Assembly: GCF_003334405.1 (NCBI RefSeq) | Contig: NZ_QOWM01000012.1 | Length of the DNA: 64,000 bases | DNA from: Escherichia coli | Lineage (GTDB): Bacteria > Pseudomonadota > Gammaproteobacteria > Enterobacterales > Enterobacteriaceae | Strand: one strand, 5' to 3' | Part shown: positions 12,167 through 22,086 of the stretch, piece by piece | How positions within the stretch are numbered: position 1 is the stretch's first letter | Layout: every line of letters begins with the position of its first letter | Notes under the pieces: model-generated | Database searches by the model: none | What the model was told of the DNA's origin: nothing | Seen by the model: the letters and a program-made list of their open reading frames with translations, nothing else | Made by a program: the position numbers and the translations under genes

Positions 12167-13219
12167 TTATTTCCCCACCAGCTCGTTTATCTCTTTCACT
12201 GTCTGGTTAAACCGCTCTGACTCAAGCTCAACACCTAAGGCCCGACGCCCCAGCGCCATTGCTGCTTTTATTGTGGAACCGGATCCCATAAAAAAATCAG
12301 CAACCAGATCACCAGGTCGACTACTGGCATTGATTATTTGCCGGAGCATATCCGCAGGTTTCTCACACGGATGTTTACCCGGGTAGAACTGAACGGGTTT
12401 ATGCATCCAGACATCGGTATAAGGCACGGAGACTGATACGGAGAAATAGCGCCGGAGAGATTTAAACTCATCCAGCAATTCAGAATATTTGCGATTCAGT
12501 GAATCATAAGATGCCACCAGCTGGTGGTGTGGTTGTTCCAGTTGTTGTTCCTGAAACTTCTCTGCCGCTATACGGGAAAACAGTGCCTGTAACTTCCGAT
12601 AGTCAGCCTCATTCGGCAACTGCCACTGACTGGCACCAAACCAGTGGGAAACCATATTTTTCTTACCTGTGGCTTCGGCAATTTGTTTTGCCGTTATACC
12701 CAGTTCGGCACGAGCATCCCTGAAATACGATATCAGCGGTGCCATTATGTGCTGTTTGAGTTCCCTTTCTTTTGCCGCATAGCCGTCACTTTTGCCGCGA
12801 TATGGCCCCTGGTAATGTTCAGCAAACAGAACGCGCTCTGTGGCAGGAAAATATGCGCGCAGACTTTCTTTATTACACCCATTCCAACGTCCGGACGGCT
12901 TCGCCCAGATGATATGGTTAAGCACGTTGAAACGTTCACGCATCATGATCTCAATATCAGATGCCAGGCGATGCCCACAGAACAGGTAAAGGCTTCCGGC
13001 AGGTTTCAACACCCGCCAGAACTGGGCCAGACAGTGGTCCAGCCACTTAAGGTAATCTTCGTCCCCTTTCCACTGATTGTCCCAACCGTTGGGTTTCACC
13101 TTGAAGTAAGGCGGATCGGTAACAATCAGGTCAATGGAATCATCAGGCAGGGACTGAATAAAATGCAGGCAATCAGCGTTGATTAAATCAACACTGTTTA
13201 TTTTTACAGTATTTTTCAT
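12167..13219 (-). CDS. Orphan DNA methyltransferase (N6-adenine/N4-cytosine beta class)
   Basis: 350-aa ORF with motif IV DPPY near the N-terminus (LIVTDPPYF) and motif I FFMGSGST near the C-terminus. Confidence 0.85.
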   Translation of the reverse strand: MKNTVKINSVDLINADCLHFIQSLPDDSIDLIVTDPPYFKVKPNGWDNQWKGDEDYLKWLDHCLAQFWRVLKPAGSLYLFCGHRLASDIEIMMRERFNVLNHIIWAKPSGRWNGCNKESLRAYFPATERVLFAEHYQGPYRGKSDGYAAKERELKQHIMAPLISYFRDARAELGITAKQIAEATGKKNMVSHWFGASQWQLPNEADYRKLQALFSRIAAEKFQEQQLEQPHHQLVASYDSLNRKYSELLDEFKSLRRYFSVSVSVPYTDVWMHKPVQFYPGKHPCEKPADMLRQIINASSRPGDLVADFFMGSGSTIKAAMALGRRALGVELESERFNQTVKEINELVGK

Positions 13220-17802: not shown

Positions 17803-18192
17803 TCAGGCGGCTGCACCCGCCGTTTTCTCGTACTTACTGATAGTGATCTCGACCTTCCCTTCCGGGATAACCGGCCCCCACTCCACCAGCATTCTTTTCA
17901 CCTGGCTGTCGTCTTCCCACACCCCCGCGTGGGTCAGGGCGTCAAACAGCGCCTTGTTATAGTTGTCCAGATCGCGGATCCGGTTATCCGGAGGAAACAA
18001 CACGATCTCCACTGAAGCAGGTGCCGACGTTGGTTTCGGCAGACGACGTAACTGCTCAACTATTGCTGCGCACGCCGCGCTCTGGAATTTTCGCCCCGCC
18101 TCGCTTATCAGGCTTTTACCTACAAACGCCCCTTTGTTGGGGTGTCGCCAGTACGTGTTCACGCTGGGCGGGAAAGGCAAGATCAGCTTCAT
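17803..18192 (-). CDS. rusA: RusA-family Holliday junction resolvase
   Basis: 129-aa ORF LILPFPPSVNTYWR...DLDNYNKALFDALT. Confidence 0.85.
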   Translation of the reverse strand: MKLILPFPPSVNTYWRHPNKGAFVGKSLISEAGRKFQSAACAAIVEQLRRLPKPTSAPASVEIVLFPPDNRIRDLDNYNKALFDALTHAGVWEDDSQVKRMLVEWGPVIPEGKVEITISKYEKTAGAAA

Positions 18193-18515
18193 ACTTTCAG
18201 GCCTCTCTCATGTAACCAGTGGGCTGCACGCAGCCTGGCTTTTTCCTCACCGGCAAGCAGTGCGCGGATAATCCCGACCGCCTCGCTGTCGTCGTCCTTC
18301 ACCGCGGTATGAAGCGTTATCCCCCGGGCCACGCCACGCTTTATCGTGATGACGCCTTTTTTCTCCAGTGCACGAAGATGCTCTACCGCTGCATTCACTG
18401 AACGGTATCCCAGCATGGTTGCCACCTCCTGATTGGTTGGCGGAAAGCCACGCTCTTTCTGGTAAGAAATCAGCATATCCAGCACCTGCTGCTGGCATTG
18501 AGTTAACGTCGTCAT
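18189..18515 (-). CDS. Phage regulator with a LexA-like N-terminal DNA-binding domain
   Basis: LTQCQQQVLDMLISYQKERGFPPTNQEVATMLGYRSVNAAVEHLRALEKKGVI resembles the LexA winged-helix domain; ORF track start is 18548, probable start is MTTLTQ at 18515. Confidence 0.55.
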   Translation of the reverse strand: MTTLTQCQQQVLDMLISYQKERGFPPTNQEVATMLGYRSVNAAVEHLRALEKKGVITIKRGVARGITLHTAVKDDDSEAVGIIRALLAGEEKARLRAAHWLHERGLKV

Positions 18516-19009
18516 TACGCCCCCACGTAATTCCCTGACAGATACCACTCATCACTCGATACAGCGCGCTTGCTGCTTTTCCGTAAACACTGCTCACGAC
18601 GCGCCAGAAAATTGTTTCGTTCTGGCTGGGAGTGGCTTTCACGGAATGCCACCATCCACACCGTTGCAGCACGACGGTATAAGCCCCTGGACTCCAGTTC
18701 TTCAGCCTGGCGGGTCAGGCACAAAATCTCCCGCTGGTCGTTAGTGCCGACATAGAAATTGCGCACAGGTCTGGTTTCACGAACTGGTTGCGGTTCCGCC
18801 TCCTGCGCTCTCTCAGTCAGGCGCGGGAAATGTCTGCGTGTATCCCCTTCACAACGGTGAGCCACACGACCACTCTGACGTAACTTGCTTGCTGACTGCA
18901 GAACGCGCTGCCGTGAGTAACCTGCAAAAGCATCCGCAATGTCTCCGGAAGTACACCCCGGATGGGCTTCAATGAATTTCTGAACGTCATTCAAAAGACT
19001 CATAATCAC
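18515..19009 (-). CDS. PerC/Pch-like regulator homolog
   Basis: 164-aa ORF; LESRGLYRRAATVWMVAFRESHSQPERNNFLARREQCL resembles the PerC-family core. Confidence 0.5.
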   Translation of the reverse strand: MIMSLLNDVQKFIEAHPGCTSGDIADAFAGYSRQRVLQSASKLRQSGRVAHRCEGDTRRHFPRLTERAQEAEPQPVRETRPVRNFYVGTNDQREILCLTRQAEELESRGLYRRAATVWMVAFRESHSQPERNNFLARREQCLRKSSKRAVSSDEWYLSGNYVGA

Positions 19010-20886: not shown

Positions 20887-21087
20887 CTAATCTTTCGGAT
20901 AGATATCCGGTCTTAAGTCAGATTTCGTAATTGCACCTGACGTGCATTGCTCAAGTTTTTTAGCCAGCACAAAACTGGCTTTTTTATAGCCATTGAAAAC
21001 CAGCCGTAAGTAGCCAGGTGTTGAGCCAACTTTTCCGGCCAACTCGCCCTGCTGTTCTTTGGTTAAAGAGTCCCAATACGCTTTCAT
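20887..21087 (-). CDS. Cro/YdaS-like small HTH regulator
   Basis: The ORF track extends this to 21390 (167 aa), overlapping the cI start; the plausible gene is the last 66 aa (MKAYWDSLTKEQQGELAGKVGSTPGYLRLV...), divergent from cI. Confidence 0.6.
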   Translation of the reverse strand: MKAYWDSLTKEQQGELAGKVGSTPGYLRLVFNGYKKASFVLAKKLEQCTSGAITKSDLRPDIYPKD

Positions 21088-21177
21088 ACAATATGTACCT
21101 CCGGTATACATATTACATGATTGAAATGAACCTTCAAGATACTTGTACCTTAACGGTACAAGGGTTTTAATTTCGTT
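21088..21177. promoter_or_regulatory. Divergent cI/cro promoter-operator region with palindromic operators
   Basis: CTTGTACC-ttaac-GGTACAAG perfect inverted repeat and ATATGTACC-tcc-GGTATACATAT; more TGTACC half-sites at 21890-21925. Confidence 0.5.
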
Positions 21178-21852
21178 ATGAAAACAATCCATGACATCCG
21201 GCGGTCTAACGCCAGAAAACTGAGAGATGGTGTTGGCGGGAATTCTTCCTTTGCCACTATGATTGATCGCGAGCCAACCCAAACCAGCAGGTTTATGGGA
21301 GATGGTGCTACTAAAAATATCGGTGACAGCATGGCACGACACATCGAAAAATGTTTCGACCTGCCTGTCGGATGGCTCGATCAAGAACACCAGACAACGA
21401 ACATCACAAAAAAACCTGATGTTTCAATCACTAATAAACAAATCACATTAGTCCCTGTCATATCATGGGTACAGGCCGGAGCATGGAAAGAAGTTGGATA
21501 TTCTGAGGTTGATTTGAGCACAGCAGAAACGTATCCCTGCCCTGTACCCTGTGGGGAAATGACTTATATCTTGCGGGTGATAGGTGATTCAATGATTGAT
21601 GAGTACCGCCCGGGAGACATGATTTTTGTCGATCCTGAAGTACCTGCCTGCCACGGTGACGACGTTATTGCATTGATGCACGATACAGGTGAAACCACCT
21701 TCAAAAGGTTGATAGAAGATGGGACACAGCGTTATCTCAAAGCGTTAAACCCAAACTGGCCTGAGCCTTACATTAAGATCAACGGTAATTGCTCTATAAT
21801 TGGTACTGTGATTTTCTCAGGAAAACCAAGAAGATACAAAATCAAAGCTTAA
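21178..21852 (+). CDS. CI-like prophage repressor with LexA-type S24 autopeptidase domain
   Basis: 224-aa ORF; C-terminal half has the S24 Ser/Lys dyad context (VIGDSMIDEY ... TFKRL). Confidence 0.8.
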   Translation: MKTIHDIRRSNARKLRDGVGGNSSFATMIDREPTQTSRFMGDGATKNIGDSMARHIEKCFDLPVGWLDQEHQTTNITKKPDVSITNKQITLVPVISWVQAGAWKEVGYSEVDLSTAETYPCPVPCGEMTYILRVIGDSMIDEYRPGDMIFVDPEVPACHGDDVIALMHDTGETTFKRLIEDGTQRYLKALNPNWPEPYIKINGNCSIIGTVIFSGKPRRYKIKA

Positions 21853-21855
21853 TCA

Positions 21856-21882
21856 ATGTTTATGAACCTGCTTCGGCAGGTT
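21856..21882 (+). terminator. Rho-independent terminator after the repressor gene
   Basis: gaacctgcttcggcaggttttttta. Confidence 0.5.
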
Positions 21883-22086
21883 TTTTTATACTTGACAATG
21901 TACCTTTGAGATACATAATGTACCCAAGAGAAACAACAAACAGGCAGGACGCTCACGAAGTAGCCGCCTGGGGCATATGAAGTCCAGGATGATTCGTTAG
22001 CAACAAAAAAGCGCCCTACAGGACGCTTAGCTCTTTAACAATCTGGTCCCCATCAACAAGTAACTGATAACTTGAGGAGGTGTGAA

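Follow-up and report, generated by a model that had tools for sequence, protein, structure and literature searches.

Putative operators of a lambda-type switch on both sides of the repressor gene in an e14/SfV/SfIV-type prophage of Escherichia coli

A 64-kb stretch of an Escherichia coli contig (NZ_QOWM01000012.1; hereafter the window) carries a prophage in which short palindromes containing the hexamer TGTACC lie on both sides of a cI-like repressor gene. Which protein reads these palindromes, and what do they control? A first-pass annotation had described them as an operator set of the OR/OL type with one common half-site, a description supported by the cI-like gene that they flank, by their overlap with promoters and by their conservation in 29 loci. 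We consider it very likely that they serve as operators in a lysis/lysogeny switch built like that of lambda and belonging to the e14/SfV/SfIV immunity type, and we treat them as putative binding sites. The evidence for this reading comes from the sequence itself, from motif statistics, from the pattern of conservation, from the domain content of the encoded proteins, and from the start of the repressor transcript mapped in strain K-12. The locus is an already catalogued e14/SfV/SfIV immunity region, and the element is of an ordinary, known kind. The analysis refines its map, now with three sites in OR, two in OL, and three promoters, and follows the conservation of this arrangement as far as Pseudomonas and the Halomonadaceae; it adds detail and no new principle.

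The prophage in the window is a lambdoid element of the SfIV/SfV/e14 type. It is integrated at the tRNA-Thr(CGT) gene (thrW), adjoining proA, and the same site is occupied in the closest E. coli genome match. Its immunity region is 98.3-99.9% identical in DNA sequence to those of SfIV, SfV, and the e14 element of K-12, with which it shares repressor, Cro, and operator sequences. According to the RefSeq gene names, the two regulatory genes are ymfK (LexA family protein) and ymfT (YdaS family HTH protein). The repressor is identical, residue for residue, to YmfK/CohE of K-12 (100%), and the Cro-like protein has 100% identity with its SfV counterpart and 98.5% with that of e14. In alignments of OR and OL, the changes fall mostly in the spacers, apart from one base of an OR1 half-site. 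This is the single base by which the OR of e14 differs from that of the window, and it lies in the right half of OR1 (TATACA in the window, TGTACA in e14). The elements differ in their surroundings: the module of the window belongs to a full-length prophage at thrW, whereas e14 is a remnant integrated at icd, and the genes downstream of PL differ. Part of the map is already present in database records. The "putative operator region" of the SfV GenBank record corresponds exactly to positions 21093-21161 of the window (69 bp), which take in OR1 through OR3, and the record of phage Ayreon has a promoter annotated after the cI terminator, at the position of PL. We searched 5426 complete E. coli genomes with a 1251-bp query; 2067 contain a match, and 1323 of these hold at least 80% of the query. 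The larger count is too high an estimate for the immunity type alone, because the query includes a separately mobile element in the PL leader.

The domain content of the repressor is that expected of a protein inactivated by self-cleavage. Residues 93-212 correspond to Peptidase_S24 (Pfam, E = 4.6e-26), and the S24 part (residues 93-217) matches the C-terminal domains of lambda cI, UmuD, and LexA in the PDB. As read from the translation, Ala100-Gly101, Ser138 (IGDSM), and Lys176 (FKRL) lie in the expected motifs. The 70 N-terminal residues have no match in Pfam-A; the N-terminal domain matches phage-repressor PHROGs, and its nearest solved relative is Rep of Salmonella phage SPC32H (5d50), whose DNA-binding domain it matches weakly (E = 6e-4). 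This likeness is confined to the N-terminal domain, as the S24 part does not match 5d50. The Rep protein of SPC32H is inactivated by an antirepressor and is not known to cleave itself. The overall layout is that of an N-terminal DNA-binding domain followed by a C-terminal S24 domain with its Ala-Gly, Ser, and Lys residues. For YmfT, Pfam returns YdaS_toxin (1.9e-5) and HTH_3 (0.009), and the protein falls in PHROG 35, a transcriptional repressor. The genes are divergent and separated by a gap of exactly 90 bp (21088-21177).

The strings quoted in the first-pass annotation all occur where it had placed them. The palindrome CTTGTACC-ttaac-GGTACAAG occupies positions 21142-21162. The second one, ATATGTACC-tcc-GGTATACATAT, is found at 21091-21113; it is not the clean inverted repeat with a 3-bp spacer that had been proposed and reads, in the register of the family, TGTACC-TCCGG-TATACA, equivalent to ATATGTA-N9-TACATAT. 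The TGTACC motifs downstream of cI are also present (cttgacaatgtacc at 21891-21904 and ataatgtacc at 21915-21924), but they belong to full 17-bp sites and are more than half-sites. Finally, both palindromes recorded in the gap between cro and cI are real, but they do not make up the complete set: a third, degenerate OR site had been missed. The motif alignment suggested as a check brings together five sites on both sides of cI, which fit a 17-bp consensus TGTACC-N5-GGTACA at 9-12 of 12 positions (table 1).

Table 1. Positions of the genes, putative operators, promoters, and terminator of the immunity region, in window coordinates; fractions for operators are matches to the 12 defined positions of the consensus.
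Feature	Position	Strand	Description
cro-like gene ymfT/croE	20887-21087	-	66 aa, YdaS-type helix-turn-helix; ORF, Pfam, PHROG, and RefSeq name
OR1	21094-21110		TGTACC-TCCGG-TATACA, 10/12; over the predicted PR start and the complement of the cro Shine-Dalgarno (GGAGG)
PR (predicted)	21137-21110	-	-35 TTGAAG at 21137-21132, 16-bp spacer, -10 TAATAT at 21115-21110
OR2	21127-21143		TGAACC-TTCAA-GATACT, 9/12, degenerate; PR -35 in the spacer
PRM	21143-21178	+	-35 TTGTAC at 21143-21148, 17-bp spacer, -10 TTTAAT at 21166-21171, start 21178
OR3	21144-21160		TGTACC-TTAAC-GGTACA, 12/12, perfect palindrome; between PRM -35 and -10
cI-like repressor gene	21178-21852	+	224 aa; ORF; N-terminal DNA-binding domain and S24 autocleavage domain
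Intrinsic terminator after cI	21864-21883	+	Terminator scan; annotated in the SfV and Ayreon records
PL	21892-21919	+	TTGACA, 16-bp spacer, CATAAT; 11/12 of the sigma-70 consensus; predicted start about 21926, towards xis/int
OL1	21899-21915		TGTACC-TTTGA-GATACA, 11/12; in the PL spacer, overlaps PL -10
OL2	21919-21935		TGTACC-CAAGA-GAAACA, 10/12; over the PL start; weaker, lineage-restricted

Such a cluster might in principle arise from the chance grouping of a common hexamer, and TGTACC is indeed somewhat enriched throughout the window (34 copies against 17.9 expected). We scored every 17-mer of the window against TGTACC-N5-GGTACA and took as expectation the mean of 200 Markov-1 simulations. 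In the 64 kb, we observed eight matches at 10 or more of 12 positions (1.3 expected), two at 11 or more (0.075 expected), and one at all 12 (0 expected). Six of the 19 sites scoring at least 9/12 lie within the 850-bp immunity stretch. The shorter pattern TGTA-N9-TACA occurs three times against 0.47 expected, at 21094, 21144, and 21899, all in the immunity region, and this count was reached in none of 100 shuffles. Together with the positions conserved in 29 loci, described below, these statistics make a chance origin scarcely credible; the comparative data already refute it. Outside the proposed operators, four sites score 10/12 (5017, 45340, 53603, and 21543) against 1.3 expected for the whole window, which is not clearly above chance. 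The first three were rejected as operators, each having one good half only. The fourth lies inside cI and served as an internal control: at synonymous positions its letters are not kept in relatives, and it was likewise discarded.

The sites are also conserved among relatives. We compared 29 loci encoding a repressor N-terminal domain 59-100% identical to that of the window, among them SfV, Ayreon, Hafnia phage yong2, Edwardsiella phage EPP-1, and Pseudomonas phage BR133a. A further 23 of the 29 were taken from a scan of species-representative genomes and extend from Atlantibacter, Pantoea, Klebsiella, Proteus, and Morganella to Salinicola, Halomonas, and Pseudomonas. Three sites precede the ATG of the repressor gene in all 29 loci, with centres at -76 to -79, -42 to -45, and -26 to -29. 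As all three are found in every locus, OR is tripartite. The left half of OR2, degenerate in the window, is a perfect TGTACC in the relatives from Proteus, Morganella, Salinicola, Halomonas, and Pseudomonas. In 27 of the 29 loci, a homologue of the Cro-like gene lies in divergent orientation. The repressor domain, the Cro-like protein, and the sites co-occur and therefore travel together as one module. By analogy with the lambda paradigm, and given this co-inheritance, the sites would set the immunity specificity of the prophage, as the first-pass annotation had proposed.

The half-sites are almost constant across these loci, in contrast with diverging spacers and flanks. Among 25 distinct enterobacterial sequences, the information content of the left half, spacer, and right half is 2.00, 1.30, and 1.54 bits per column for OR1, 1.75, 1.35, and 1.56 for OR2, and 1.84, 0.37, and 1.87 for OR3, compared with 0.70 bits per column for the 17 bp that follow OR3. 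At OR3, 21 distinct spacers coexist with three versions of each half-site. The spacers of the other two sites are constrained because that of OR1 contains the complement of the cro Shine-Dalgarno sequence and that of OR2 the -35 hexamer of PR. On the other side of cI, the corresponding values in 25 relatives are 2.00, 0.42, and 1.73 for OL1 and 1.32, 0.67, and 0.68 for OL2, with 1.89 for the -35 hexamer of PL and a background of 0.26 bits per column further downstream. Most enterobacterial relatives have OL2, at a distance of 20 bp from OL1, but Proteus, Rosenbergiella, and Morganella lack it.

All three promoters of the region, PRM and the predicted PR and PL, are overlapped by the putative operators. 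PRM has experimental support. Its -10 hexamer lies 6 nt before the ATG of cI, and every relative has an xxxAAT hexamer 6-7 nt ahead of the ATG. In the differential RNA-seq start-site data given for K-12, ymfK appears as one of five leaderless E. coli mRNAs, with a leader length of 0 (PMC4681348). As the OR of e14 is only one base off that of the window and the PRM sequence is identical, the start of the cI transcript can be placed at 21178, the A of the ATG, and the mRNA is then leaderless here too. The mapped start puts OR3 at -26, inside PRM, and the centre of OR2 at -43. PR was not listed by the promoter scan because it has only 8 of 12 consensus matches, and its hexamers are conserved in position among relatives (TTGAAG, TTGCAG, or TTGACG at -35; TAATAT or CATAAT at -10). 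Its start is predicted at about 21102-21105 on the minus strand. In the part of the K-12 start-site list that was covered (PMC4681348), the PRM start is the sole entry for this region, with none for PR or PL; this fits repression of PR and PL in the e14 "lysogen" but is weak evidence.

The palindromes could also act at the RNA level, as hairpins of a terminator or attenuator. The terminator scan does flag 21142-21162 as resembling a terminator, since an 8-bp stem precedes GGTTTTAATT there. In the relatives, however, the arms are invariant and do not covary, the loop is free to change, and there is no conservation of the T-run. The same motif also recurs in the PL spacer. Moreover, the OR3 palindrome is not transcribed from PRM because it lies upstream of the mapped start of the cI transcript. 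Both the non-covarying arms and this position led us to reject a terminator at OR3, and we judge the RNA reading as a whole to be highly improbable.

Returning to operators bound by protein, we propose a mechanism built mostly on the lambda paradigm, in which binding, the sequence in which the sites fill, activation, and the part played by the Cro-like protein are inferred. Repressor dimers would recognize the 17-bp TGTACC-N5-GGTACA sites, and YmfT presumably reads the same ones. In the lysogen, repressor bound to OR1, which covers the PR start together with the ribosome-binding site of cro, and to OR2, which covers the PR -35, would keep the cro-ymfL-ymfM-replication operon silent. Repressor on OL1 and OL2, covering the spacer, -10, and start of PL, would similarly silence the leftward-type operon that extends to xis and int. 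OR3, located inside PRM, is expected to mediate negative autoregulation of the leaderless cI transcript. Since OR2 is at -43 from the PRM start, as is OR2 of lambda, it may also activate PRM. After DNA damage, RecA-stimulated self-cleavage at Ala100-Gly101 by Ser138/Lys176 would free PR and PL. PR would then drive cro, ymfL, ymfM (the SfiC division inhibitor), and the replication genes, and transcription from PL would run to xis and int. This proposal agrees with the published view of the control of SfiC/ymfM in e14, which is SOS-inducible and independent of LexA, with cohE suggested as the regulator (bioRxiv 10.1101/2020.11.19.390815). It reveals no new kind of mechanism. Our search of the searchable literature returned no binding, footprint, EMSA, or ChIP data for YmfK or YmfT.

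An alternative is that the cI-like repressor does not bind some of the sites, or any of them, and that these are read only by YmfT or a different phage regulator, for instance the CII-like YmfL. The frequent association of the sites with Cro-like genes would fit this alternative, as would the location of the perfect palindrome OR3 in PRM, where the analogy with lambda leads one to expect a Cro-preferred site. Two Morganella loci nevertheless keep the three sites and the repressor N-terminal domain with no detectable Cro homologue, which makes the alternative unlikely overall, although it may hold for individual sites. The sites are also found in PL, which a repressor must silence in the lysogen. 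As to YmfL, activators of the CII type use direct repeats, as in lambda CII, and this counts against it as the binder. We thus regard a set of sites read without the repressor as improbable.

A host regulator, LexA or another, is a further candidate reader, for the element is SOS-inducible and the TGTA...TACA sites superficially resemble an SOS box. Both are palindromes of TGTA/TACA flavour read, or putatively read, by a protein of the S24 family; they differ in spacing and flanks. The sites have the form TGTA-N9-TACA and not the N6 spacing of the SOS box (CTGT-N8-ACAG), and no match to CTGT-N8-ACAG, with one mismatch allowed, was found in 21088-21177 or 21890-21940. With no SOS box in OR or OL, membership of the LexA regulon was rejected. 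Induction of SfiC is LexA-independent (bioRxiv 10.1101/2020.11.19.390815), and the sites accompany the phage repressor into Pseudomonas and the Halomonadaceae. A role as LexA boxes, or as targets for some other regulator of the host, is accordingly very hard to sustain.

With the repressor as the likely reader, how far does the resemblance to lambda extend? Taking the lambda figures from established knowledge, without recomputing them, the two switches share divergent cI and cro genes, a tripartite OR, a second operator set in PL beyond cI, 17-bp pseudo-palindromic sites, a weak -35 of PRM, a leaderless cI mRNA, and a self-cleaving S24 C-terminal domain. The centre of OR2 is also at about -42/-43 from the PRM start in both. 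The differences concern the sites and their arrangement. The half-site is TGTACC and not TATCACC as in lambda, and the centres of the OR sites are 33 and 17 bp apart instead of 24 and 23. OR1 lies over the PR start, whereas in lambda it is between the -35 and -10, and the best palindrome is the PRM-proximal site, unlike in lambda. There are two OL sites against three in lambda, no rexAB between cI and OL, and a Cro protein of the YdaS type, unlike lambda Cro.

Two of these differences bear on the way the switch may operate. OR2 and OR3 adjoin each other; their centres are 16-17 bp apart and so lie on different faces of the helix, and pairwise cooperativity in the style of lambda is not to be assumed. 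Similarly, the best site, OR3, is inside PRM, the reverse of the affinity order of lambda cI, and the lambda order of occupancy is therefore not to be assumed either. The perfect palindrome in PRM, the abutting degenerate OR2, and OR1 33 bp further on might indicate a switch wired differently from that of lambda, a reading that we consider doubtful. The geometry, conserved from E. coli to Pseudomonas and the Halomonadaceae, could reflect a binding mode not used by lambda, for instance a tetramer spanning OR2 and OR3 or looping between OR and OL over the 0.8-kb cI gene; alternatively, it could reflect dominant negative autoregulation. If the wiring does differ from that of lambda, the operator code would be widely useful for understanding E. 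coli regulation, because this immunity type is found in roughly one quarter to one third of complete E. coli genomes, K-12 included.

On the reading that we favour, it is these sites that set the immunity group of a family of E. coli and Shigella prophages that is very common and to which e14 of K-12 belongs, and they are the likely control point of the SOS-inducible, LexA-independent division inhibitor SfiC/YmfM. The map of five sites and three promoters makes the binding of YmfK and YmfT, cross-immunity between e14 and phages of the SfV/SfIV type, and the induction of e14 directly testable.

Two minor observations concern the early genes. The conserved element in the PL leader has no match in Rfam, no similarity to the HK022 early region that we searched, which should contain the put sites of that phage, no obvious likeness by eye to the putL-like RNA of HK639, and no second copy in the 64-kb window. 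Phages of the SfIV type have been described as devoid of N, cII, and cIII (PMC3851460); against the reported absence of cII, YmfL scores as CII-like in PHROGs.

Downstream of the predicted promoter PL, which is directed to xis/int, lies a conserved non-coding element (Table). Forty-five phage records carry copies with 78–98% identity, unannotated in all of them. The element is also present in phages with differing immunity regions: SfII, ST64B, mEp237, mEp460, ZF40, SPN3UB, YeP1-3, and phiNP. Among eight diverged copies compared, four of the five pairs of its hairpin show compensatory double changes, and none of the pairs is broken. A search of Rfam gave no match to the element; neither the searched early region of HK022 nor, on inspection by eye, the putL-like RNA of HK639 showed similarity to it. 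The element may serve as a leader RNA acting in cis, in phages that reportedly lack N. In the related Hafnia phage yong2, the PL/OL region is followed, approximately 100 bp downstream, by a tRNA-Gly(CCC) gene (2282–2355 of locus L003).

Features of the window discussed in the text
Feature	Position	Strand	Remark
Conserved non-coding element	21940–21996	+	PL leader, downstream of PL
Hairpin in PL-leader element	21967–21971/21984–21988	+	Compensatory changes
Invariant CGAA/TTCG helix, enclosing the hairpin	21956–21959/21993–21996	+	Eight diverged copies
Repressor residues 1–71, DNA-binding domain	21178–21390	+	Repressor very common in E. coli
TGTACC copies	20195, 20240, 20426	−	Inside ymfL/ymfM-type genes
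LexA-box-like sequence, near-consensus	13190–13211		Gene on − strand, 12167–13219
119-aa ORF	18189–18548	−	Early rightward-type operon

We compared substitutions in the predicted operators OR and OL among relatives at least 95% identical overall (loci L001, L002, L006, and L029, the last being K-12 e14). The majority fall within the operator spacers. The OR3 spacer (21150–21154) occurs as TTAAC, CTATC, or TTATC, and that of OL1 (21905–21909) as TTTGA, CATGA, CTTGA, or CTACA; this variation may reflect either neutral drift or a tuning of affinity. The sole difference between the OR of the window and that of e14 lies in the right half of OR1, at position 21105, where the window reads TATACA and e14 TGTACA, the latter being nearer to the consensus. 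Over the whole window, TGTACC is about twofold enriched, with 34 copies for 17.9 expected, a number reached in one of 100 shuffles. For the three minus-strand copies inside ymfL/ymfM-type genes, a palindromic partner is not evident. As for the repressor itself, its first 71 residues gave no match in Pfam-A, and the closest solved structure to this DNA-binding domain is SPC32H Rep (5d50, E = 6e-4).

Two other features of the window show a resemblance to LexA or its box. The sequence TACTGTAAAAATAAACAGTG, the only perfect CTGT-N8-ACAG within the window, lies within a phage DNA methyltransferase-like ORF, immediately past its 5′ end. The 119-aa ORF overlaps a gene of 109 codons annotated by RefSeq in the closest genome as a "LexA family transcriptional regulator." As the protein has only about 110–120 residues, it leaves no room for an S24 self-cleavage domain; judging from its sequence, the product looks like a candidate LexA N-terminal DNA-binding domain.
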